Shown here piece after piece: positions 4,076 through 21,419 of a stretch of DNA of 64,000 nucleotides. A model generated the notes under the pieces. That model was not told the DNA's origin. It saw nothing but the letters and a program-made list of their open reading frames with translations, and did no database searches. A program made the position numbers and the translations under genes. The stretch is from an uncultured Gemmatimonadales bacterium (GTDB lineage Bacteria > Gemmatimonadota > Gemmatimonadetes > Gemmatimonadales > GWC2-71-9), in contig CAVYSW010000003.1 of the NCBI GenBank assembly GCA_963771275.1, positions 832,001 through 896,000 on the forward strand, in the 5' to 3' direction. Every line of letters begins with the position of its first letter. Position 1 is the first letter of the stretch.

Positions 4076-5373
<1,298 letters not shown>

Positions 5374-6355: not shown

Positions 6356-7777
6356 TGTCAGATGACAAGACATCGCTCTGTCCGGGAGATGACAAGACAT
6401 CGCTCCCGTATGGTGGTCGGTCGGAACGGAGCCACCCCGGGGAGGGGAAGAAGGGGAGGCCAGGGTCGGTCCGCCACGTTAGCGCAGCCGGTAGTCATGG
6501 GTGTCGATAAGCTGTCCGTCGAGGTACACGAGGAGCCGCTGCTCGCTGACATCCACCGTGGCGCGGACGTATTCGTACACGGCGGCCACGGGGACGGGAA
6601 AGCGTTCGCCGAAGATATCCAGCACGCGGTCGCTCCGAATGAACCGCATGAAGTGGTAGCGGCCGCGCTCGGGCTTCGGCAACGGATGCCTCGGAGGCGA
6701 AGCCGTGTCTGGGAAGCGCAGGAGCGCGCCACTCGCGCGCAGCACCGCCAGGGGAGTACGGCCGTGCAATTTGCTGTACCGGTAGCGCGCATTGTGATGC
6801 TCCTCAAAGCGCCGGCTCTCGCGAGACAGGGCACCGGCGTCCTCCAAGGGAACCCGGCGGCGAAACCGGTGCTCATAGAGGTCGTTGAATTTCTCCACCA
6901 CCCCATTCCGCCACGGCTCCGCGATCGGGATGAAAAGCGGCTCCACCCCCTGGGGCAAACACAGACGGATCAGCGGCCCCATGCCGCGGGGGTGACGCCG
7001 GCTCCCGAAGAAGACCAACTCGTTGTCGACCTGCCCGTAGCGCGGCACCCCCAGGCGGCCCCAGGTGGCCCAGATCGCATTGATGGTGGCCTGGGCATCC
7101 CGCTGCAACGCGGGCTCCACCGCACAGCGCCCGGTGGCCAACTCCACGGTGTTCAGGCTGTAGAAGCGCAGCGGCGGCTTCCCGTAGCGGGGCCCGACAA
7201 AGTCCATCTGCTGGACGCTGCCGACCGCGGTGCCATCCGGTGCCGGATACTTCTTGCCCTTCGGCTGGTACGGCTCGGCATCGGGGGCCACCGCGCCGTG
7301 GCGTGCCAGGATGCGCGCGATCGTGCGCGCCGTCGGCACCTCGGGGGTCTGCAACGCCTCCAGCTCCCAGAGGATGGCCTGCGCGCCATGGAACGCCCCC
7401 TCGCGCTGGAGCTGCCCTCGCATCGCCAGCACCAGCGCCTCCACGGCGGGCGTGCACTGCCTCGGGCTCCGGTGCGGGCGGCGGGACCGATCGCGAAACC
7501 AGGTCGGATCGTCGGGGTCCGCTCGGGTCAGCCACTTCCGCACCCACCAGGGGGAGCGGTGGAGGGACGCGGCAATGGCACTGACACTCTCGCCTGCCTG
7601 GTACCGCTCGAAGGCTTGCTGGCGCTCCTGCTCGAAATCTGGCTCCATGCGCTCCCCGCAGCTCGCGGCCGGAACGCATGGTGCACCGCACTGCCCAAAA
7701 ACCAAGCCTCTCGCGTGAGTCCCAGAAGCGATGTACTGTCACTTCCCGGCGAGGGCGATGTCTTGTCATCCATCACA
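6356..7777 (-). mobile_element. IS481-like DDE insertion sequence with TGT...ACA ends and repeated end motifs
   Basis: GATC at 6352-6355 and 7778-7781; GATGACAAGACATCGC at 6361 and 6388 with inverted copies at 7755-7770 and (degenerate) 7728-7743. Confidence 0.88.
6479..7648 (-). CDS. IS481-like transposase (HTH plus rve/DDE)
   Basis: DRSRRPHRSP, QQMDFVG, QVDNE and PWRNGVVEKFN motifs. Confidence 0.9.
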   Translation of the reverse strand: MEPDFEQERQQAFERYQAGESVSAIAASLHRSPWWVRKWLTRADPDDPTWFRDRSRRPHRSPRQCTPAVEALVLAMRGQLQREGAFHGAQAILWELEALQTPEVPTARTIARILARHGAVAPDAEPYQPKGKKYPAPDGTAVGSVQQMDFVGPRYGKPPLRFYSLNTVELATGRCAVEPALQRDAQATINAIWATWGRLGVPRYGQVDNELVFFGSRRHPRGMGPLIRLCLPQGVEPLFIPIAEPWRNGVVEKFNDLYEHRFRRRVPLEDAGALSRESRRFEEHHNARYRYSKLHGRTPLAVLRASGALLRFPDTASPPRHPLPKPERGRYHFMRFIRSDRVLDIFGERFPVPVAAVYEYVRATVDVSEQRLLVYLDGQLIDTHDYRLR

Positions 7778-7847: not shown

Positions 7848-8453
7848 TTGAATCAGGCCGCTGCTGATCTAGTCGAAGCCGCCAACGCTGAGCTTGTTCG
7901 CGCTTGGAGCGGACCGGAGGTCACTTGCATAGCAACCGTGCAGGGTGACGGGTCCTCAGACCGGCTGTGGCTGTTCCGGATCCGATCAGGGGACCAGAAG
8001 GTCGCCACGGAATTCGCAAAGCGGCTCCGGTCCCACATCGACCACCTGAAGCCACTGAGACTGAAACGCCAGGTCAACCTGCCGACACCACTTGTCGCCA
8101 AGCCATACGGAGCTGGCCACAGGCTTGATCTTGGACTGCACGTGGTCAACGATATCTGGAACGGCTCGTTGATGCTCTTCTTCTATTACGAGGGGCGGTT
8201 CTACAATCCTCCACACCTACAGCTGCCTGACATGCATCGATTCGCGGACGTCGCCGCGGCCCTCTGGCGTTCGGCCGCCTGCGATTGCCATGGTGCCACC
8301 CACTGCCCGGATGGCTGTTGGGAATGTTTCGACCTTCGGTGCAGCCGCTGCGAGGGAACTGGATGGAGGGACTATAGCCTCTGGCTACGCCGCGGCCCAC
8401 GCATCGATTACAGTAGCGGTTGGCCGCTGGCAATGGTTGAGAACGCGGTCTAG
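7848..8453 (+). CDS. Cassette protein: hypothetical with Cys-rich putative zinc-binding C-terminus
   Basis: CDCHGATHCPDGCWECFDLRCSRCEGTGW; stop codon lies in an R''-like GGTCTA. Confidence 0.6.
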   Translation: MNQAAADLVEAANAELVRAWSGPEVTCIATVQGDGSSDRLWLFRIRSGDQKVATEFAKRLRSHIDHLKPLRLKRQVNLPTPLVAKPYGAGHRLDLGLHVVNDIWNGSLMLFFYYEGRFYNPPHLQLPDMHRFADVAAALWRSAACDCHGATHCPDGCWECFDLRCSRCEGTGWRDYSLWLRRGPRIDYSSGWPLAMVENAV

Positions 8454-8539
8454 CTGCCGGGCGGCGTAGGCTGTGACTGGCGATTGGCGGGCAGACTTCG
8501 GCATGAACGACGCCGGACCCCGGATGCGAAGGAGAGGAG

Positions 8540-8716
8540 ATGCCAGCGGTACTGAACGAGATTCTCGACGTGTTCTACGCGAAGCTCTCAGAGTCGGATT
8601 CGCTCGATGAGCAGACGATCAAGGCGCTGCGCACACTCTTCGCGTCGGGTAGGAACCTCAGGGCGGACGACTTGGTTGAGATCCTCTCAGCCGCAGCGAG
8701 GGACCCTCGACCATGA
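8540..8716 (+). CDS. 58-aa protein translationally coupled to the ATPase (absent from the ORF track)
   Basis: AAGGAGAGGAG RBS; MPAVLNEILDVFYAKLSESDSLDEQTIKALRTLFASGRNLRADDLVEILSAAARDPRP; ATGA overlap at 8713-8716. Confidence 0.72.
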   Translation: MPAVLNEILDVFYAKLSESDSLDEQTIKALRTLFASGRNLRADDLVEILSAAARDPRP

Positions 8717-11166
8717 TCCAGATCGAGTCGGTCCGTATACGGGAGCTGCGGGGAATCCGGGATCTGGAGATCGCGCCGAACCGGAAGAACTTCCTCGTCT
8801 CGGGGCCGAACGGTTCCGGCAAGAGCGGTGTCGTCGACGCGATTCAGTTCGCCCTGACGGGCGAGATGGCGCGCCTTAGCGGCAAGGGCACCGGCGGGCT
8901 GAGCGTGCAGCGTCACGGGCCGCATGTTGAGCGCAGGGACGACCCGGCCGCCGCGCAAGTGTCACTGCGCTTCTACGTGCCGGAAAAGAACAAGTCCGCT
9001 GTGCTGACCCGAAGCGTCAAGACGGCAAAGACCTTTGGGCTGGAGCCCGACGATCCGGAAATCAGAGCGATAATTGAAGAGGTCGCGCAGCACCCGGCAG
9101 TTACCCTGTCGCGGCGCGAGATCATCAAGTACATCCTTGTCGAAGCCGGGCAACGGTCCAAGGAGATTCAGGCGCTCCTGAAGCTCGAAGAGATCGGCGA
9201 GACGCGGGGTGTGCTGAAGACCGTCAGCAACAAGCTATCCATTGCCTCCAAAGCGGCGCAGCGCGATGTGGAAAGCGCGGATGACGCGTTCCGGCGTCTT
9301 CTGGACGTGAGGGCCCTTTCGAAAGAAGACATCCTCGCGGCTGTCAACGCGAAGCGCAGGACGCTTGGTCTGACCGAGATAGCTGACCTTGCCGCCGACA
9401 CGAACTTGAGCGCGGGTGTCCTGGAAGGCACCGCACAAGCGGGCTTTCACAAGGAGTCCGTGCTTCGGGATGCGGAAGCTCTCCGCACAGTGGTGGCTGG
9501 TTTGCCCACGCTGGGCAAGAAGGAGGCCGAGAGCGTAGTTCGTGATCTGACCGCGCTGGAAGGCGACCCGGCACTGTTTGAAGCGATTACGCGCCGTGCC
9601 TTTGTCGCGCGCGGCCTCGCGCTTGTCGGGGATGCGCACTGTCCGCTGTGCGACAAGGATTGGGAAAACGAGGACGCCTTGAGGGCGCATCTGCAAGAGA
9701 AGCTTGCCCGGGCGGATAGGGCCGAGGCGGTGCAAGAGCGGCTGCTGGGAAACGGTGCTGCGATAGCCGGCCAGGCACGCCGGGTTGCCGGACTGGCCGA
9801 GGCGGTCGAGCTGGTAGCGAAGACGGACGGCCCGGATGGGTTGTACCAAGATCTCGGAGACTGGTCGGCGGCGTTGCGCGCCTTTGCATCGGAGCTGGAC
9901 TCGGTCGAGAAGATCCGCGGGCACCGCAAGCGGCTTGAAAACGGCTGGACTGCAGCGCCTACATCCTTGAACGAGCGCTTGGATGCGCTGAAGACGGCCG
10001 TTCAGGCCAAACCAGACCAGAGCGCAATGGTTGCCGCCCAGACTTTCCTGACGCGGGCGCAGGACCGGCTTACGGCATGTCAAAGCGCGCGGCGCCAGGC
10101 GAAACGCGCCGCGGCGGCGGTCGAAGCTGGGAGGGCCGTCTACAACACGTATTGCGAGGTAGCGGACGCGTATCTGAGCGCCCTGTACGAAGCGGTGGAA
10201 AACGATTTCGGCTCGTACTACCGCGACATCAACCCGGACGATGAAGGCGGCTTCAAAGCGAAACTCGCACCGGCGGAGAGCGGGCTTGATCTTGAGGTGG
10301 CGTTCTACGACAAGGGCATGTTCCCGCCTGGCGCGTATCACAGCGAGGGACACCAAGATGGCATGGGGGTGTGTCTATACCTCGCGCTGATGCAACGCTT
10401 GCTCGGCACTCGCTTCGGGTTCGCGGTTCTCGATGACGTGGTGATGTCGGTTGATCAGGGGCACCGGAAGGAGTTCTGCAGGTTGCTGAAGACGCGCTTT
10501 CCCGACACACAATTCATCATCACCACGCACGACAAGGTGTGGGCGAAGCAAATGCAGACCGAGGGACTTGTTGAGGCAAAGGCCGGTGTCGTCTTCCACA
10601 GCTGGAGCGTCCAGACTGGTCCGATCGTAGAACAGGCTGCCGGCGTTTGGGAGCAGATTGAAGCCGATGTCGCGAAGGGCGAGTTGGATGTTGCGGCGGG
10701 TCGGTTGCGCCGCCACATGGAATACATTGCCTGGGACCTCGCCGATCAGCTCGTGGCAAGGCCTCCTTTCCGCGGAGACCTCGGCTACGAGCTCGGCGAC
10801 CTGCTGCCAGCCGTTATCGGGCGGTACGGGGAGCTCCTGGGGCGGGCCGCCAGGGCGGCGAACGCGTGGAGCAACGACGACGAAAAGGCGAAGGTGGAGG
10901 CCCTGAAGACAGCGTGGTCGGAAGCTCTCGCCAGGCACGGCGGCGAGGCGTGGGTCGTCAACAAGGCCGTCCACTGCAATGCGTGGGCGGATTTCACCAA
11001 AGGGGAATTCCGGCAGGTAATCGAAGCGTTCAAGGGCCTGCTCGCACAGCTTTCCTGCTCGAAGCCAGCCTGCGAGTCATGGTGTTACGTGACGCCGCGG
11101 AAGGCCGATCCGGAGTCGCTGCGTTGCCGTTGTGGAGCGGTGAATGTCAATCTCAGAGCGAAGTAG
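8713..11166 (+). CDS. Rad50/SMC-like ABC ATPase with zinc hook and RloC-like (HEPN-like) C-terminus
   Basis: Walker A GPNGSGKS, CPLC hook, HSEGH signature, VLDD Walker B, TTHD; tail with RLRRHME, NKAVH and CxxxxC...CxCG. Confidence 0.8.
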   Translation: MIQIESVRIRELRGIRDLEIAPNRKNFLVSGPNGSGKSGVVDAIQFALTGEMARLSGKGTGGLSVQRHGPHVERRDDPAAAQVSLRFYVPEKNKSAVLTRSVKTAKTFGLEPDDPEIRAIIEEVAQHPAVTLSRREIIKYILVEAGQRSKEIQALLKLEEIGETRGVLKTVSNKLSIASKAAQRDVESADDAFRRLLDVRALSKEDILAAVNAKRRTLGLTEIADLAADTNLSAGVLEGTAQAGFHKESVLRDAEALRTVVAGLPTLGKKEAESVVRDLTALEGDPALFEAITRRAFVARGLALVGDAHCPLCDKDWENEDALRAHLQEKLARADRAEAVQERLLGNGAAIAGQARRVAGLAEAVELVAKTDGPDGLYQDLGDWSAALRAFASELDSVEKIRGHRKRLENGWTAAPTSLNERLDALKTAVQAKPDQSAMVAAQTFLTRAQDRLTACQSARRQAKRAAAAVEAGRAVYNTYCEVADAYLSALYEAVENDFGSYYRDINPDDEGGFKAKLAPAESGLDLEVAFYDKGMFPPGAYHSEGHQDGMGVCLYLALMQRLLGTRFGFAVLDDVVMSVDQGHRKEFCRLLKTRFPDTQFIITTHDKVWAKQMQTEGLVEAKAGVVFHSWSVQTGPIVEQAAGVWEQIEADVAKGELDVAAGRLRRHMEYIAWDLADQLVARPPFRGDLGYELGDLLPAVIGRYGELLGRAARAANAWSNDDEKAKVEALKTAWSEALARHGGEAWVVNKAVHCNAWADFTKGEFRQVIEAFKGLLAQLSCSKPACESWCYVTPRKADPESLRCRCGAVNVNLRAK

Positions 11167-11423: not shown

Positions 11424-13706
11424 ATGATCAGCTTCTTCAAGCGCCTGCTCGGCCTCGGTGAGGACGCGCCACGCGCGGCCGCGCCGTCGACGTCGTCGAA
11501 CGTGCGGCCTGCCCAGTCGTCGCCGCGGGTCCAGGACACTGGCCGGCGGGGCACCCAGGAGGAAGCGGGTGGTGAAGTGGTGAACCGATACTTCGAGCTC
11601 TCCGCTGAGATCGAGATGGGGAAGCGCGACCGAGATTATGCTCGCGCCGTCCGCGCCGCCCGGGCAACGTACTCGATCCTCCCAGCAGTCGTTCGGCAGT
11701 GGAAGCGCGAGTACGGCCGGTTTGACATCAACACGTCACACGCCGTCCATACGGCGCCCAAACTCATGGCCGTGATGGAGGACCGAGATGGTATCCGAGA
11801 GCTCCGCGCCGTGCTTGAGTCGGTGGAGGAGCTTCGTGACTGGCTGCCGTCCGCCGCGGAGGCGGAGGCCAACGTCGAGGTCGTGCCCCATATCGTGGCG
11901 CTCGTGGAGGCCGAGCCTGGGATCCTTCAGTCGTCCCTCAAGTCACGGCTCCCTGGAGCCGGCAACGCCGAGGCCGAGGCCGGATCCGCGATCTCGAACC
12001 TCGCCGCTTGGCTGGAGAAGGCCGGGCGCATTCAGCGAGTGAAGAGGGGCTTGAGCTACCGGCTCTATCCGGCCGGCTACCGCATCTCGACGGCGGCGGA
12101 ATCATCATCACCAACTTCTTCTTCGTCGAGGAGCGCCTCCTCGACTTGGCCATCATCAGCGTCCTCTTCCTCATCCTCTTCCCTCCTCGCCTCGGCTCGC
12201 CCGCCGCGCGCCCGGAACCGGCGCCCGGCGGCGAAGGCGCGCCTGCTCGATCTCGACTGGCTGCCCGTCGTGCGGCTCCCTCGGGCGCCGTTGCGGTGGG
12301 AGGAACGGGATCAACGTGAGACGGACGCCCAGAGCAGCGCAGCCAAGAAGACCAAGGCGTCCCGGAGCGGGAGATTCGAGGTGCGGGGCGAGGGTTGGGC
12401 GCTGGCTTCCGAGGAAAAGCTCGCCCCGGCCGACCGACCCGACCCCGCGTATAGGGACGTCTTCCCAACGGGCCGCTACACCCACTGGCTCGACCCGAGG
12501 GGAAGGCGGGAGGGCTTCGAATACGCCGCCTCCGTCTTGCGCGTGACGGACCGCGAGGGCCAGGTGGTGGCAGAGCGGGGCCTCGCGCACGACGTCTATC
12601 GGTCGGACGTCAACGCCGACGGGACCGGGATTCTCTTCCTCTCGCGCGAGGGGATGCTGCACGGCTACACCGAGGCGCTCGCGCCCTTCATCGAGGAGTC
12701 GCTGGCAGACCTCCCCGAGTACCGCGCCCAGGCCGACCGGTTCGGCATCGGCCCGCACGAGCTCAAGAACCACTCGCGGACCGTCGCCATCTCCTCCGAC
12801 CGGAGCCGCTACCTCGTCACCGTGGTGGACGAGGCGTGGTGTCTCGACACCGCGACCGGTCAAGTGGTGTGGGGCTTCCGGATGCCGTCCAAGGAAGGGT
12901 GGACCCGGGTCGTCGCCGACCGCTCGGAGCGCACGGGAACGAGCGCCGAGGTCGAGGCGGCGCTCCAGTTGATGCAGCTCGAGCTCCCGGTCACCCCCGA
13001 CAACATCACAAAGCAGTACCGGGTGCTCGCGATGCGGTTGCACCCTGACCGGAACCCGGGCGACCCGAAGGCGACCGCCCGGTTCCAGGAGCTGGGCGCC
13101 GCGATGGAGCTGCTGACGGGGTCCGATCTCTCCGGTCTCTCCGGCCGCGAGGTCGAGCGGGTGACGTACGAGCAGGTGCTCTCCACCTCCCGCGTCTCCG
13201 TGCCGGACGGACGCGGCGGGGCGGCTGACATGGAGTTCACCATTAGCATGGGCGTGAGCGAGAGCTTCGCCTCGGATTGGATCTACGCCGCCAACCTCGG
13301 GAAGGACGGTCGAGGGTTTCTCGCCGGGTACTCCGGCAAGGTGGTCGTAGTCTCCACCCGAGGGATCCCGGAGCGCGTCTACGACATCGGTTCGGTGCCG
13401 CGGCACATCGCCGACGCCGGGGAGCACCTCTATATCCTGACGGACACTCGGCTCTATGTCCTGGCCGGCGACCGCCTCGAGGCACTCGTCGACGTGTACG
13501 GGGCGAGCGACGTCGTGGTCGGCGACCGCGGCTTCGCGCTGCTCGAGTCGAAGGCGGTGACGTGGTACAACCCGGACGGCCGGCGCGTGGGCTCTGTTGA
13601 GACCAAGGATCCGCTCCGTCGCGTCCTTTCGACGAGCGGCGGGCTCGTAGTCGAGACACGACAGCACCGCGCGCGTGTCATTGGCGCGCCATCGTGGTGG
13701 GCGTGA
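11424..13706 (+). CDS. Large J-domain (DnaJ-like) protein with beta-propeller-like regions
   Basis: ITKQYRVLAMRLHPDRNPGDPKATARFQELGAAMELL (HPD); Ser-rich linker; beta-rich repeats on both sides. Confidence 0.8.
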   Translation: MISFFKRLLGLGEDAPRAAAPSTSSNVRPAQSSPRVQDTGRRGTQEEAGGEVVNRYFELSAEIEMGKRDRDYARAVRAARATYSILPAVVRQWKREYGRFDINTSHAVHTAPKLMAVMEDRDGIRELRAVLESVEELRDWLPSAAEAEANVEVVPHIVALVEAEPGILQSSLKSRLPGAGNAEAEAGSAISNLAAWLEKAGRIQRVKRGLSYRLYPAGYRISTAAESSSPTSSSSRSASSTWPSSASSSSSSSLLASARPPRARNRRPAAKARLLDLDWLPVVRLPRAPLRWEERDQRETDAQSSAAKKTKASRSGRFEVRGEGWALASEEKLAPADRPDPAYRDVFPTGRYTHWLDPRGRREGFEYAASVLRVTDREGQVVAERGLAHDVYRSDVNADGTGILFLSREGMLHGYTEALAPFIEESLADLPEYRAQADRFGIGPHELKNHSRTVAISSDRSRYLVTVVDEAWCLDTATGQVVWGFRMPSKEGWTRVVADRSERTGTSAEVEAALQLMQLELPVTPDNITKQYRVLAMRLHPDRNPGDPKATARFQELGAAMELLTGSDLSGLSGREVERVTYEQVLSTSRVSVPDGRGGAADMEFTISMGVSESFASDWIYAANLGKDGRGFLAGYSGKVVVVSTRGIPERVYDIGSVPRHIADAGEHLYILTDTRLYVLAGDRLEALVDVYGASDVVVGDRGFALLESKAVTWYNPDGRRVGSVETKDPLRRVLSTSGGLVVETRQHRARVIGAPSWWA

Positions 13707-14053: not shown

Positions 14054-14579
<526 letters not shown>

Positions 14580-14682
14580 CCCGACCATATGAAAGCGCGG
14601 AGCTGCCCTCGGGCGGCTCCTAGGAGTTCCGGAGCAATGCCGCGAGGGCCACGTTCCCGTGGTCTCGCATAGGAGGCTCCGC

Positions 14683-15741
14683 ATGCGCTGGGTCGGGCTG
14701 GATCTTCACAAGCGGTACATCACGGCGTGCGCGCTCAACGATGCCGGCCAGATCGTTGGCGAACATCGGCGACTGCCGCCGGACATGGACGCGCTCGTCG
14801 CATGGATCGCGGCCCTGGGCGACGCCGTGACCGTGGCGATGGAAGCGACGCTGTATTGGGCGTGGCTCCACGAGCGGTTGAGCGCCGCAGGGATCGCGGC
14901 CGTGGCCGCGCATCCCTACCAGGTGAAGCTCATCTGGCAGGCGCGTTGCAAGACCGACCCCATCGATGCGCGCAAACTCGCCGAGTTACTCCGCACCAAC
15001 CTGCTGCCCGTGATCTGGGTGCCGGATGCCACGGTCCGGGCGCGCCGGCACCTGCTGCGGGGCCGAGCCTACTTGGTGCGGGTGCGCACGCAGCTGAAGA
15101 ATCGCATTCACGGGCATCTCACGACCGAGAACTGTCGGACCACCGTGACGGATCTCTACGGGCGCGCGGGGCGGGCGTGGCTCGCGACCGTGGCCCTCTC
15201 CCCGGCGGGGCGCGTCCAGGTGGATCTGCTGCTCGAGTTGGTGGATGCCCTCGACGTCCGGATTCACAGTCTCGACGATCGGGTGAAGCGCCTGGTGCAG
15301 GGCGATCCCGTGGCGCAGCGGCTGCAGACCTGGCCGGGCATCGGGACCTTCGGGGCAGCGCTCCTACTCGCCGAGATCGGGACGATTCACCGGTTCCACT
15401 CGGCGCACGAGCTGGCGGCCTATGCGGGACTCACGCCGAGCACACAGAGCTCCGGGGACAAGACGCGGCACGGCTCGGTGGGGCGGGCGGGGAGCCCCTG
15501 GCTCAAGTGGATCCTGATCGAGATCGTGCAGCGCCTGAAGCTGGCGCCGGGGCCGGTGGGGCAGCAGTATCAGAAGCTGCTGCGCTCCAAAGGCAAGGCG
15601 AAGGCCACGGTGGCGGCGGCACGGAAGCTGTGCTGCGATCTCTATTGGTGTCTCAGGGAGGCGTGGAGCTACGACGCGTGGCTCCGGCAGCATGAAAAGC
15701 TGGAGGTGCGCCCGAGGCAAACGCTGGGCTCGGCGGCGTAG
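14683..15741 (+). CDS. IS110/IS1111-family recombinase
   Basis: VGLDLHK, AMEAT, KTDPIDA, WPGIG, YAGLTPSTQSSG, VAAARKL; AGGAGG RBS. Confidence 0.95.
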   Translation: MRWVGLDLHKRYITACALNDAGQIVGEHRRLPPDMDALVAWIAALGDAVTVAMEATLYWAWLHERLSAAGIAAVAAHPYQVKLIWQARCKTDPIDARKLAELLRTNLLPVIWVPDATVRARRHLLRGRAYLVRVRTQLKNRIHGHLTTENCRTTVTDLYGRAGRAWLATVALSPAGRVQVDLLLELVDALDVRIHSLDDRVKRLVQGDPVAQRLQTWPGIGTFGAALLLAEIGTIHRFHSAHELAAYAGLTPSTQSSGDKTRHGSVGRAGSPWLKWILIEIVQRLKLAPGPVGQQYQKLLRSKGKAKATVAAARKLCCDLYWCLREAWSYDAWLRQHEKLEVRPRQTLGSAA

Positions 15742-17451: not shown

Positions 17452-17778
17452 GGCCACAGCCACCCTCTTGCGTTCGATGGCCTTCGCGATGTCCCGCGGC
17501 TTGGCTCCGAGGGACAAGAGCGAGCGCAACAGCAGGTCCAGCGACACCGACGGGTCCCCAGCTTCCATCTTCGCGACGCGGGACTGGCTCGAACCCAGCT
17601 GCTTTGCCAATGCAACCTGTGTGAGGCGCGCCGCCCGCCGCCGCGCCCGCAATGACTCGCTCAGGGCCACCCGAAGCTCCACCAGAGCAGCCTCCTCCGC
17701 GTTCAGGCCGAGGAACTCCGTGGCCGAGCCAACGCGCCACCCCTTCGCTTCAAGGCGCTTCCGCTTCGTCTGCTTCAT
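17446..17778 (-). CDS. XRE/HigA-type HTH antitoxin
   Basis: LTQVALAKQLGSSQSRVAKMEAGDPSVSLDLL. Confidence 0.85.
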   Translation of the reverse strand: MKQTKRKRLEAKGWRVGSATEFLGLNAEEAALVELRVALSESLRARRRAARLTQVALAKQLGSSQSRVAKMEAGDPSVSLDLLLRSLLSLGAKPRDIAKAIERKRVAVAV

Positions 17779-18128
17779 ACTCCCTCCTCGCTCTCGGCAG
17801 CGCGATCGTAGGCCCGGAGCCGCCGCCGACAGACGTCGATCACGTGGCGCGGCGTCAGCGCCGTCTTCTTGCTGAACACGTCCGCGATCACGATCGCGTC
17901 CCGGTCCACCCGATAGACCAGACGCCACGTGGTGTCCGCATCGCGCACGCGCAGTTCATGGCAATGGGGCCCAATCGCCGGCATCGGCCGCGACTGCGGC
18001 AGCGTCAACATGTGACCCCCCTGCACTTGCCGGAGTAACACGCCCGCCTCGACGCGAGCCGCTGCCGAGAATGGCGGGGTCTTGACCTCCCCATGGAGCC
18101 AGACCAGCGGCTTGTCGCCCAAGGCCAT
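17775..18128 (-). CDS. RelE/HigB (Gp49-like) toxin
   Basis: KPLVWLHGEVKTPPFS...CHELRV...WRLVYR...FSKKT. Confidence 0.85.
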   Translation of the reverse strand: MALGDKPLVWLHGEVKTPPFSAAARVEAGVLLRQVQGGHMLTLPQSRPMPAIGPHCHELRVRDADTTWRLVYRVDRDAIVIADVFSKKTALTPRHVIDVCRRRLRAYDRAAESEEGV

Positions 18129-18135
18129 GAGGAAG

Positions 18136-18157
18136 TATATGTCATATGCGACATATA
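18136..18157. promoter_or_regulatory. Palindromic operator upstream of the TA operon
   Basis: TATATGTC-N6-GACATATA perfect inverted repeat just before the toxin ATG. Confidence 0.65.
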
Positions 18158-18294
18158 GGCAAGTGGCCGTCTCTAACCGGCGCTTGAAGCTGCCCGGCGC
18201 CTGCGCCGGGCCTAGGATTGAGCGCCTGGGACTCTCCGGGACCAGGTCATTGACCAGACGCGCCTCGCCTGGTGCACTCTCGCGCCGGCAGCTT

Positions 18295-19370
18295 TCTGTG
18301 AAGCGGTGCCCCGCGTCAAGCCCCCCCCCGAGCTTGCCATCGCTCCCTTCCTCCGTTGTCCCGCCCGTCTCGAGGTGCTGCTCAGCCTTCTGTGCGCGCT
18401 CGTCGTTGAGGCTCGTCGGCCTCGGCGCATCGGGGTGGTACGAAGGAGCGGACGGCGCCAACTAAGCGACGGCCTCGTGCGGCGGCCATACGCTGCCGCG
18501 CTCTCGACCTGGTGCGACCGCAGGATCCGCCAGGCGGCCTCGACCAGCAGGTAGCGGACCCGCCGATTCCCCGCCTTGGTGATCGGCCCCACGCGGCGCG
18601 GTTCGTTCGAGCTGCGCTCCCCGGGCACCACCCCCAGATAGGCCTCGAACTGGTGCGCCGCGGCAAACCGGGTGATGTCATCGATCGTCGCGTTGAGCGG
18701 CGTGAGCAGGGTGACCAGCGGGGCCAGCTCGGCGGCCAGCGTCGGCGACACCGGGAGCGCCTCGAGCTGCGCCCCCCACCCGCTCGGCCGCGCTGCTCGG
18801 CACCCGCAGGCCGTCGCGGCGCACCAGCGCCTTGGCGAGGGCGACGGAGCGCGTGCGGGTGCGCACCAACGCCTCCCGCACCGCCAGCTCCGCCCGCACA
18901 GGGCGCCGCGGCTCCGCGAGGCGGTGGGCCCGCCGATAGGTGCCCGCCTGACAGGCCTCCATCAACGTCCGCGCGTCCCGCTTGTCCGTCTTCACCCGCC
19001 GCGAGCGGGTGGCGTACATCGGCGCGTCGTTCGGATCCGCCACGATCACCGCGTGCCCCAACGATTCCAGATGCCGCGCCACCCACTCACTCTCCGTGCT
19101 CGCCTCCAGCAGCACCCGCGCCGGCGGCCGATCGGCCAAGACGGCAGTGAATCGCTCGCGGCTCGTCACGATCCGCCGGTCGGCGATCGTCCCGTCCGCG
19201 TGCCCGATGCAGAGCTGGCTCTCGCGTTTGTGCAGATCAAGCCCTATCGTATCCATTGGTAGCTGGCCTCCCGGTTGCGCCCCGTCGCAAGACGGTGAGC
19301 GCGTGAAAAGCGTGTGGGGCAAGCTTGCCACCACGGAACCGTGGAGGTCAGCTACCGCTTCATACCAACT
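18295..19370 (-). mobile_element. IS1111-group element with decayed transposase
   Basis: Subterminal inverted repeats TGAAGCGGT 18299-18307 and ACCGCTTCA 19354-19362. Confidence 0.85.
18463..19256 (-). pseudogene. IS110/IS1111 transposase pseudogene
   Basis: MDTIGLDLHK, LLEAST, KTDKRDA, then frameshift and deletions; YLGVVPGERSS and ITKAGNRRVRYLLVEAAW in another frame. Confidence 0.85.
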
Positions 19371-19393
19371 AAGCGCATGTCCGTCAGGCTGCG

Positions 19394-20597
19394 ATGAGAA
19401 GACGGCTCCGTTTTCCGATATGCTTCGCCGCCTGGCTTTGTTCGCAGGCGCTCGCTGTGAGCGCATGTCGCGTTCAGAGACCCACAGCAACGCCCCAAGC
19501 CTACGACAGTGCTGGCGTGCACGTCGTCGAACTCTCACTACGCGATCCATCGCGATGGGCCTTGTCTCCCGAGCCAGTTCTGGATCTGTCGACCTCCGAT
19601 GACGCGACTCGCGAGTTCTTTCACGTAACCGCTGGCATCTTTCTCTCGGACAGCGCGATCGCCATCGTCAACGCGGGCACCTACCAGGTACGAGTCTTCG
19701 CCCCGGGTGGCGCACTTGAGATCGAGTTTGGCCGGGCGGGCGACGGCCCAGGCGAGTTCCGAGGGCCGTACCGCATCTTCGAGGTGCTCGGGAGCTGGCC
19801 TCGCGGTACACGATATCTTCCGAGCAACCCTGTCGCTCTTTGACCGCACCGGCCACCTCCTCATTACGGCATCTCTGCCCCACGTGGCCGTCTGGTCCAC
19901 GGTGCTTGGTTGGCTCCAAGAGGATCGAGTGCTCCTTGGTTACTGGACCGTGGCACCGCTACTTCAGGAATTCCAACAACAGTTCACGCAATACCTCTCC
20001 TACTCTTGGACGAATGGGATCGTGGACTCTCTCGCACGCATCCCCTCAGGTACGATTGGCTTCATCGGGGGCCTCGAGCCATGGGGCGTCATAGGCGGCG
20101 CCCTCTTCGAGGCACAAGCGCACGCGGCGACCGTCGCCGGTCTGGCCATCCTCGGAGACGGAGCGGTACCCGAGCTTCGCTTGGTCGACAGACAGGGGGT
20201 CCTAAAGCGCATTCTGCGTTGGCACCACGACCCCAAACCGGTCAGGGCCGGAGACCTGGAAGCGTATCGGGCCGCGAGGCTCGGTGAGCGCCCCGATCCG
20301 GCCGACCGAGCCATGATGAAGAAGCAGTTGGCCGCTACGCCTGTGTCTCAACAGTTTCCGGCCTTCGCTGACATTAGGTCCGACCGCGACGGTCGAATCT
20401 GGATACAGAGCTATGTGCAACCGGGAGCGCGGACCCAGGTCTGGCACGTGGTTCGCCTCGACGGCAACCTGATTGCAGCCGTGGAGCTACCCCTTCGGAC
20501 GCAACTGCTAGATGCTGTATCGGATAAGGTGCTAGTTGTCGAACCTGATGAGTTCGACGTGGAGCATGTTCGGGTGTATCGAATACGTCAAAGGTAG
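19394..20597 (+). pseudogene. 6-bladed beta-propeller lipoprotein, frameshifted near 19790
   Basis: LAVSAC, DSAGVHVV, GRAGDGPGEF in frame 19394; continuation in ORF 19707-20597; paralogous to 16088-17293. Confidence 0.75.
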
Positions 20598-20813: not shown

Positions 20814-21132
20814 ATGCGCTTCGTCGAGACCCCCGTCTTTCACGCAGACGATCCAGCGGCTCCTGACGGACGACGAGTACCGGCGCTTGCAGCTCGCCCT
20901 CCTGCTGCGCCCAGAACAGGGCGCGCTGATCCCCGGGTCCGGCGGGCTCCGGAAGATGCGTTGGGCCGCCAGCAGCACCGGCAAGCGCGGGGGCCTTCGG
21001 GTCATCTACTACTGGACCGCCGGGAGGGACGTCGCTTACATGCTGTTCGCGTATCGGAAGAACGTCCAAGAGGACCTGACCCCGGCACAATTGCGCGTGC
21101 TCCGGCGGCTCGTGCAGGAGGAACTGGAATGA
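20814..21132 (+). pseudogene. RelE/HigB-2-like toxin with a 1-nt insertion near 20838
   Basis: MRFVETPVF joins TQTIQRLLTDDEY...GSGGLRKMRW...GKRGGLRVIYY only if one T is removed (span 319 nt). Confidence 0.8.
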
Positions 21133-21419
21133 GGAAGCAGGACTTCGACCAACTGGTGCTGAGCATCAAGCAGGCCGGGCGGATCCGGCGCGGCCAGGCG
21201 CGCCCGGCGCGGGTCACCGTGTTCAAGCCCGCGGACGTCCGCGCGGTGCGCGCGCGCCTCGGGCTCTCCCAGCCAGAATTCGCGCTGCTGATCGGGGTGA
21301 GTTTGGCGACCCTCCGCAACTGGGAACAGGGACGCCGGGTCCCCGAAGGCCCCGCCCGGGCTCTCTTGCGGGTCGCGGCCGCAAATCCCCACGCCGTGGC
21401 GGCAGCCCTTGGAGCATGA
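21129..21419 (+). CDS. HigA/NadS-like HTH antitoxin
   Basis: LGLSQPEFALLIGVSLATLRNWEQGRRVPEGPARALL. Confidence 0.88.
   Translation: MRKQDFDQLVLSIKQAGRIRRGQARPARVTVFKPADVRAVRARLGLSQPEFALLIGVSLATLRNWEQGRRVPEGPARALLRVAAANPHAVAAALGA

Follow-up and report, generated by a model that had tools for sequence, protein, structure and literature searches.

Introduction

RloC and PrrC are the textbook cases in which a DNA-level alarm is coupled to tRNA cleavage, and the way in which their ATPase part controls the nuclease is still unclear. Here we describe a two-gene module of the same architectural kind that is probably a distant relative. It lies at positions 8540..11166 of a 64,000-nucleotide stretch of DNA from an uncultured Gemmatimonadales bacterium (GenBank assembly GCA_963771275.1, contig CAVYSW010000003.1, positions 832,001 to 896,000 of the forward strand), and this whole stretch is hereafter called the window. 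The module consists of a gene for a 58-amino-acid protein and, overlapping its end, a gene for an 817-amino-acid ATPase with a zinc hook, a predicted HEPN-like C-terminal tail and a terminal zinc ribbon. On balance, we favour reading it as a self-contained, horizontally mobile module of the abortive-infection or toxin type, in which the ATPase would carry a ribonuclease (RNase) tail and the small partner would act as a gate.

In the sections of PMC2610378 that deal with its architecture, RloC, the anticodon nuclease that excises the wobble nucleotide, is described as combining PrrC-like ATP-binding cassette (ABC) motifs with an insertion that holds a coiled coil and a CXXC hook, followed by the pattern Arg-X3-Glu-X36-52-His, in which Ser often precedes the His. 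The same sections report that mutation of R692, E696 or H737 abolishes the activity of Geobacillus RloC, and that RloC works without an antitoxin. Parts of two further papers concern how the zinc hook and the DNA-dependent ATPase regulate RloC, and how DNA breaks activate it (PMC3458546, PMC3874168). PrrC is a tRNA-Lys anticodon nuclease that the EcoprrI restriction enzyme holds. As presented in portions of PMC2610378 and PMC3710099, it likewise joins an ABC ATPase to a nuclease domain with R-x3-E...H at its C-terminus, and its activity is gated by a separately encoded partner. RloC/PrrC-type domains are placed in the HEPN superfamily in the relevant part of PMC3710099, which also records HEPN families that keep the His without the Arg and, in its section 6, non-catalytic HEPN domains.

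Results

The small gene is an obligate partner of the ATPase gene

The module comprises two plus-strand open reading frames (ORFs) in the ORF list of the window, one of 58 amino acids at 8540..8716 and one of 817 amino acids at 8713..11166, and all module features given below lie on this strand. A Shine-Dalgarno-like GAAGGAGAGGAG (8528..8539) abuts the ATG of the small ORF at 8540, and the TGA of the small ORF shares an ATGA (8713..8716) with the ATG of the ATPase gene. Both elements were read from the sequence and agree with the first-pass annotation, which had noted a small ORF with a strong ribosome-binding site overlapping the ATPase start. The ATGA overlap suggests that translation of the two genes may be coupled. 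The module is present in a single copy in its own genome (3.86 Mb, 11 contigs).

A word-indexed search identified 910 homologues of the ATPase at E≤0.001 among 8000 scored candidates. When one genome per species was considered, 427 of 470 candidate stretches encoded a relative, and the locus analyses rest on 80 loci kept from these relatives (81 loci for the clustering of flanking genes). For the partner census, every stop-to-stop ORF in the 80 loci was searched with a profile built from 62 upstream ORFs together with that of the window. A small ORF was detected directly upstream of the ATPase gene at every locus with an intact ATPase gene (69/69) and at 7 of 8 disrupted loci, while three loci at contig edges could not be judged. 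The first-pass annotation had expected conservation beside homologues from a true partner, and these results indicate a genuine partner gene that is obligate. Among the 76 loci with a small ORF, its end overlapped the ATPase start by 4 nucleotides in 62 and by 14 nucleotides in 10, and was separated from it by a small gap in two; the others were one run-on of 189 nucleotides (L017) and one small ORF at about 2.8 kilobases (kb) upstream, with an insertion between it and the remaining part of the ATPase gene (L073). On plasmid copies with 41-45% identity, the Prokaryotic Genome Annotation Pipeline (PGAP) annotates the pair as a "hypothetical protein" of 58 or 53 amino acids overlapping an "AAA family ATPase".

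At L017 (3771-4187), the stop codon of the small ORF has been lost and the frame runs about 190 nucleotides into the ATPase gene in another frame, leaving the ATPase gene intact. Fused forms of the partner were also sought, and just three longer proteins (124-129 amino acids) were obtained, which are probably long gene calls and count as weak evidence.

The AlphaFold2 model of the partner consists of three helices at residues 3-18, 24-35 and 42-54 (predicted local distance difference test, pLDDT, 82.6). The partner consensus is neither markedly acidic nor markedly disordered and corresponds to a compact three-helix unit. No family was found for it in Pfam, NCBIfam or PADLOC, and a structure search with the model returned no convincing structural relative. 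As the first-pass annotation had proposed, we predicted the structure of the partner in complex with the full-length ATPase. Three runs gave values of 0.57, 0.59 and 0.57 for the interaction prediction score from aligned errors (ipSAE), against 0.00 for the best control, with a partner pLDDT of at least 75 and contacts agreeing by at least 92% between runs. When this tool was calibrated, the mark was passed by 116 of 157 solved complexes, but also by 2 of 215 pairs that had been mismatched, and values of ipSAE≤0.60 form a weak zone that contains only 18 of the 157 solved complexes as well as both passing mismatches. The verdict for this pair was "weak support", and the model is consistent with a partner that may bind the ATPase.

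A small gene placed first and overlapping a toxin-like gene is the usual layout of type II toxin-antitoxin systems. The module has both this layout and the strict co-occurrence, and binding, as a further feature of such systems, is tentatively suggested by the complex model.

The ATPase has a split head with a conserved zinc hook

Pfam matched the 817-amino-acid protein with SMC_N, AAA_23 and AAA_29. The SMC_N match extends over residues 4-616 on a profile of only 220 positions, indicating two ATPase lobes split by an insertion. Conservation was scored over 101 rows, namely 100 full-length cluster representatives with 28-66% identity to the window protein and the window protein itself. K37 and S38 of the Walker A motif GPNGSGKS (residues 31-38; 8803..8826) were kept in 100 of 101 rows, the remaining row being a gap. 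In the ABC signature-like HSEGHQD (residues 543-549; 10339..10359), S544, E545 and Q548 were present in all rows and G546 in 100, and the Walker B/D-loop VLDDVV (residues 572-577; 10426..10443) and the H-loop TTHD (residues 604-607; 10522..10533) retained D574, D575 and H606 in all rows. At the centre of the insertion lies the zinc-hook motif CPLC (residues 310-313; 9640..9651), whose C310 and C313 were kept in 100 of 101 rows, again with a gap in the other; P311 and L312 are invariant in the alignment of relatives. The motif residues K37, S38, C310, C313, S544, E545, Q548, D574, D575 and H606, like R666, E670, N750, H754, C787, C805 and C807 of the tail, were each kept in 100-101 rows, a conservation far above chance, and the complete ABC-ATPase motif set with a CPLC hook recorded in the first-pass annotation was borne out.

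The helical insertion between the lobes spans residues ~160-480 (9190..10152) and is presumed to form a coiled-coil arm that breaks at conserved Gly/Pro positions. In a scan of hydrophobic periodicity, the value of segment 325-400 was reached by 10 of 500 shuffles and that of segment 160-230 by 34 of 500. The coiled coil noted in the first-pass annotation thus received a modest signal in two of the four segments scanned and was not confirmed structurally. Considering this periodicity, its restriction to two segments and the conserved Gly/Pro breaks, the insertion may form a coiled-coil arm.

The head resembles SMC-type proteins in general. The best PADLOC matches were mad3 (8.2e-16) and LmuB (9.9e-16; aligned 1-612), both of which end at residue 612 and stop short of the tail (640-817), and the remaining matches were short stretches of the ATPase region. 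NCBIfam models likewise matched at the level of the head, with 15-40 bits against cut-offs of 172-1087; the Rad50 and SbcC models among them, whose cut-offs are 453.75-1087 bits, scored 15-22 bits. A PDB sequence search matched SMC, Rad50 and PtuA heads. An SMC-type ABC head and a long insertion are therefore shared with Lamassu LmuB, MADS mad3 and Rad50-SbcC, and Rad50 has a comparable zinc hook, whereas the partner genes of these systems are not conserved here and none of them has a HEPN-like tail. With head-only PADLOC matches of ~1e-15 and no third conserved neighbour in 81 loci, the module falls outside Lamassu and MADS, and with scores below the cut-offs and no conserved nuclease neighbour it also falls outside Rad50-Mre11/SbcCD.

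The C-terminal tail is probably HEPN-like and ends in a zinc ribbon

The 178-residue tail consists of a predicted HEPN-like helical bundle (residues 640-781; 10630..11055) and a four-Cys zinc ribbon with three short strands (11056..11133). All 101 rows have R666-x3-E670 in the first long helix (10708..10722). In E745-x-W747-x2-N750-x3-H754 (10945..10974), which we propose as the motif of the catalytic His, N750 and H754 were retained in all rows, W747 in 97 and E745 in 89. Of the ribbon cysteines, C787, C805 and C807 were present in all rows and C782 in 100. An alignment of 57 tails gave the invariant positions W646, R666, E670, D689, A716, E745, W747, N750, H754, C782, C787, C805 and C807. 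The motifs that the first-pass annotation had picked out were all located, RLRRHME at 664-671 (as RLRRHMEY), NKAVH at 750-754 and CSKPAC at 782-787 with CRC at 805-807, and the extra C-terminal zinc ribbon that it described is supported by the four conserved cysteines. H668 of RLRRH was considered as a catalytic His and ruled out, since just 23 of 101 rows have it; what is conserved in this motif is R666 and E670.

In the AlphaFold2 model of the tail (pLDDT 87.9; predicted template modelling score, pTM, 0.84), tail residues 6-15, 19-41, 55-79, 83-104, 108-119 and 124-140 are helical, and the ribbon strands lie at 153-155, 163-165 and 172-174, with a pLDDT of 92-96 over tail residues 141-170. 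A ranking of folds placed this model as HEPN-like at a middling Z. Searches of the ESM Atlas returned unnamed clusters only, with a PF13166-bearing cluster at rank 20 (score 0.82) as no more than a lead. Directly before N750, at position 749, every one of the 101 rows has a hydrophobic residue (I, V, L, M or T). Compared with HEPN-MNT (HepT-MntA) and minimal HEPN proteins, the canonical Arg is replaced in this tail by a hydrophobic residue. The tail is also longer, with ~140 amino acids, it is joined to both an ATPase and a zinc ribbon, and its partner is not a nucleotidyltransferase. The HEPN-like assignment of the first-pass annotation finds some support in the fold ranking and in the invariant R-x3-E...N-x3-H.

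The family is distinct from RloC and PrrC

True RloC-type sequences for comparison were obtained by a PF13166 search of 301 genomes of the window's phylum, 29 of which matched at E≤0.001. Neither the window's own genome (E≤0.001) nor the 817-amino-acid protein (E≤0.01) gave a PF13166 match, and some homologues of this protein carry a precomputed PF13166 label. Four of the 301 genomes encode true RloC-type genes distinct from the window family (L082-L085; PF13166 E 1e-138 to 1e-178, PDC-S06), and one of them, L084, has a tail that appears truncated. The best RloC locus, L082, encodes a protein of 747 amino acids that matches PDC-S06 at 1e-262; JGI gives its homologues the name "wobble nucleotide-excising tRNase".

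The window protein shares with these proteins a split ABC head with a CxxC hook in the insertion, an SEG-type signature, a C-terminal helical domain of nuclease type, and an invariant R-x3-E followed by a His. The CxFC hooks of RloC-type proteins lie at a similar place to CPLC, their tails contain LRRILEHYF and SWVNAGSH, and their lengths are similar (747-808 amino acids for those found, compared with 817). R666 and E670, present in all 101 rows, align in register with LRRILE, the junction of head and tail also aligns in register, and an R-x3-E followed by a His is the catalytic pattern published for RloC and PrrC in the relevant part of PMC2610378.

Other features set the two apart. PADLOC matched the window protein with PDC-S06 at an E-value of 0.024 (11 bits, around Walker B) and with PrrC at 0.046, in the ATPase part only and with nothing in the tail, as against 1e-262 for the true RloC-type protein. 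H754 lies 83 residues past E670 instead of 36-52, and is preceded by Val/Ile rather than Ser. The four-Cys zinc ribbon of the window protein is an addition, and so is its obligate partner gene of 58 amino acids, RloC having been described as encoded by a gene that stands alone. PrrC, in turn, has neither hook nor helical insertion and its gene lies inside a type I restriction locus, whereas the partner of the window protein has 58 amino acids and restriction genes are not conserved nearby. The label "RloC-like" given by the first-pass annotation therefore holds for the architecture and the register of R-x3-E, and not for family membership. Taken together, the sequence comparisons suggest that RloC and the window protein are probably distant kin of the same architectural kind, and the unmatched family profiles, the spacing of 83, the lack of Ser before the His, the added ribbon and the obligate partner argue for a separate family.

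The module is widespread, patchy and mobile

The best 120 homologues are all 780-873 amino acids long and 60-94% identical, and the names that sources give to homologues go no further than "AAA family ATPase", "RecF/RecN/SMC N terminal domain" or "hypothetical". Going by record titles, relatives occur in at least eight phyla and include members of Gemmatimonadota, Acidobacteriota, Planctomycetota, Verrucomicrobia, Spirochaetia, Dehalococcoidia and Clostridia, as well as Alphaproteobacteria (Bradyrhizobium, Rhizobium, Aminobacter, Paracoccus, Devosia, Bauldia) and Actinomycetota (Jiangella, Blastococcus, Mycolicibacterium). A profile of the tail matched 864 cluster representatives (50% identity) at E≤0.001 and 666 at E≤1e-10. 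In the best 150 of these 864 matches, the tail occupied about residues 640-817 of an 800-850-amino-acid protein, or the match was a fragment. Within the phylum, the tail was present in 10 of 401 genomes, three of which had shortened frames, and in none of the 165 other genomes of the window's own family. Relatives were also found in 33 plasmid records (21 at ≥80% coverage), comprising 8 conjugative, 2 mobilizable and 23 non-mobilizable plasmids; the conjugative ones include plasmids from rhizobia and roseobacters. These findings indicate that the module belongs to a large, unnamed family of widespread, mobile two-gene modules. Full-text literature searches did not find a description of the family, supplements, which may list it, being outside their scope; nor is it described in the available part of a preprint on embedded defence systems.

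The ATPase gene was disrupted by frameshifts, stops or a missing N-terminal part in 8 of the 80 loci (L023, L028, L053, L060, L062, L063, L068 and L073), seven of which keep the small ORF. Some of these disruptions may be assembly errors in long-read metagenome-assembled genomes.

Flanking genes and the island context

No third conserved gene was found: besides long calls of the small ORF, the largest cluster of flanking genes occurred in 5 of 81 loci. Two neighbours in the window were considered for this role and rejected. The 201-amino-acid ORF upstream (7848-8453, plus strand), which belongs to no family and has a Cys-rich C-terminus with a CxxCxGxG-like stretch, had no relative in the 80 loci (best E 0.29). 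The 760-amino-acid protein encoded 258 nucleotides downstream of the module (11424-13706, plus strand), with a DnaJ (J) domain at residues 517-565, recurred in L011 and L023 only, where a 38%-identical relative stands at the same position; its gene may have an accessory role or be a passenger specific to some lineages. In two Longimicrobiales loci, the next gene downstream is of the OLD-family ATPase-TOPRIM type (AAA_15 + OLD-like_TOPRIM; L008:6739-8688 and L018:6662-8695).

The GC (guanine plus cytosine) content of the module is 0.63, and that of most of the window is 0.68-0.74. The module lies in a lower-GC island (1-21500; 0.61-0.66) that also contains an IS110-family transposase (4213-5220, minus strand) and an IS481-like transposase (6479-7705, minus strand) upstream of it. 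Downstream are a BrnT toxin gene (14063-14347) followed by an 83-amino-acid ORF (14328-14579), two further IS110-family transposases (14659-15741, plus strand; 18678-19550, minus strand), a Gp49/HigB-like gene (17775-18461, minus strand) and a helix-turn-helix gene (20814-21419).

Discussion

We consider it somewhat probable that this gene pair moves horizontally as a self-contained unit and works in abortive infection or as a toxin, with the partner gating an ATPase that has an RNase tail. In such a module, the ATPase and its hook would sense a signal at the level of DNA, for example free ends, damage or the DNA of an invader, by analogy with RloC. ATP-driven engagement of the heads would pair two tails, and R666, E670, N750 and H754 of the paired tails would form a metal-independent RNase site. 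This site would cut tRNA or other RNA and so halt translation. The 58-amino-acid partner, made in a fixed ratio through translational coupling, would bind and gate the large protein, most likely as an antitoxin-like inhibitor and less likely as an adaptor or a sensor. The sequences directly show the pairing of the two genes and its strictness, the conserved motifs, the mobility and the patchy distribution, and these speak for the proposal; the RNase activity, the DNA trigger, the dimerisation and the role of the partner are each proposed from these comparisons and are put forward as such.

Several results weigh against this proposal. For the tail, the Rx4-6H motif of HEPN proteins is absent, with no Arg in 101 of 101 rows and N750-x3-H754 invariant in its place, and the N750/H754 segment is the least confident of the model (pLDDT 58-59 at tail residues 101-120). 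Foldseek found no match to the tail model in the PDB at E≤0.001, and the sequence of the tail matched no Pfam or PADLOC family and, in a profile search, no PDB entry at E≤10. A comparison of the tail profile with 92 RloC tails was not significant (P 0.11, probability 0.5%). A local profile comparison over the full length with RloC homologues speaks for the proposal: it reached an E-value of 2.8e-4 (probability 41%) in an alignment of 227 columns that starts in the signature region and extends into the tail, with GPI on NPI, W646 on LLW and LRRhLE on LRRILE in register. This match is, however, partly driven by the ABC head. Past R-x3-E the register is uncertain, with the RloC SWVNAGSH falling on the W719 region and H754 on a later RloC His. 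In the insertion, hydrophobic periodicity at 230-300 and 400-480 was not distinct from shuffles, and the complex prediction yielded a weak verdict for binding of the partner. No relative was present among 50,697 phage records. Restriction, defence or mobility Pfam domains in the longest flanking ORF at 21 of 48 loci fit the proposal, and this count comes from a scan of 90 of 149 flanking ORFs that had no background control.

The module might instead be a DNA-directed SMC-like system, as are Lamassu, Wadjet and MADS, which would restrict plasmids or phages or act in repair; the tail would then be a non-catalytic nucleic-acid-binding or regulatory HEPN-like domain, the ribbon would bind DNA and the partner would be a structural subunit that occupies the place of a kleisin at the heads. 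The canonical HEPN Arg is missing, non-catalytic HEPN domains are on record (PMC3710099, section 6), the best PADLOC matches are mad3 and LmuB over residues 1-612, the PDB sequence matches are SMC and Rad50 heads, and PGAP assigns a double-strand-break-repair Gene Ontology (GO) term to homologues. These matches, however, cover the ATPase head alone and fall far under family level, no LmuA/LmuC, JetA/B/D or Mre11-type neighbour is conserved, and polar R, E, N and H residues that remain invariant across 28-66% identity are seen more typically in catalytic sites than on binding surfaces. We regard an SMC-like system as unlikely. The ABC/SMC head with its hook and the GO annotation in RefSeq records might also suit a housekeeping SbcC/RecN-like repair ATPase with a small accessory protein, outside any conflict system. 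Such a role is very improbable given that the tail is present in only 10 of the phylum's 401 genomes and absent from the 165 others of its own family, and given the plasmid-borne copies, the flanking transposase, restriction and toxin genes, the ATPase genes broken in 8 of 80 loci and the lack of a nuclease partner.

A closer competitor to the gated RNase leaves the large protein as we propose and turns the partner into an activator, sensor or adaptor, for example one that recognises a phage product or DNA and licenses the ATPase. Strict co-occurrence and coupling fit any obligate subunit, and the compact three-helix partner, neither markedly acidic nor markedly disordered, agrees with this role. 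The gene order, however, matches the usual type II toxin-antitoxin layout, and no fused forms hint at a sensor domain, the three longer proteins being weak evidence. The small ORF also persists beside 7 of 8 broken ATPase genes and no intact ATPase gene (0/69) lacks it, an asymmetry that counts for little because some of the breaks may be sequencing errors. RloC, in the portion of PMC2610378 that addresses the point, needs no antitoxin, which favours the activator. We hold an activating partner to be possible yet rather doubtful. Slightly better placed, and still tentative, is the most novel form of the gated RNase that we favour, namely an undescribed class of two-component abortive-infection systems, in which the partner, whose fold matches none known, would be an antitoxin, the tail a HEPN RNase whose Arg has moved to helix 1 (R666), and the ribbon a device for capturing substrate, with sensing of DNA ends or phage DNA by the arms leading to RNA cleavage.

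The Pfam AAA_13 model and the PADLOC models for RloC and PrrC miss this family, and its members are annotated merely as "AAA family ATPase". The family offers two handles beyond those of RloC, the obligate tiny partner and the zinc ribbon, and its tail would represent a natural variant of the HEPN active site that lacks the canonical Arg. If active, the module would enlarge the known set of RNA-targeting defences and would make it possible to study the gating of an effector by SMC-type heads in a compact system of two proteins.

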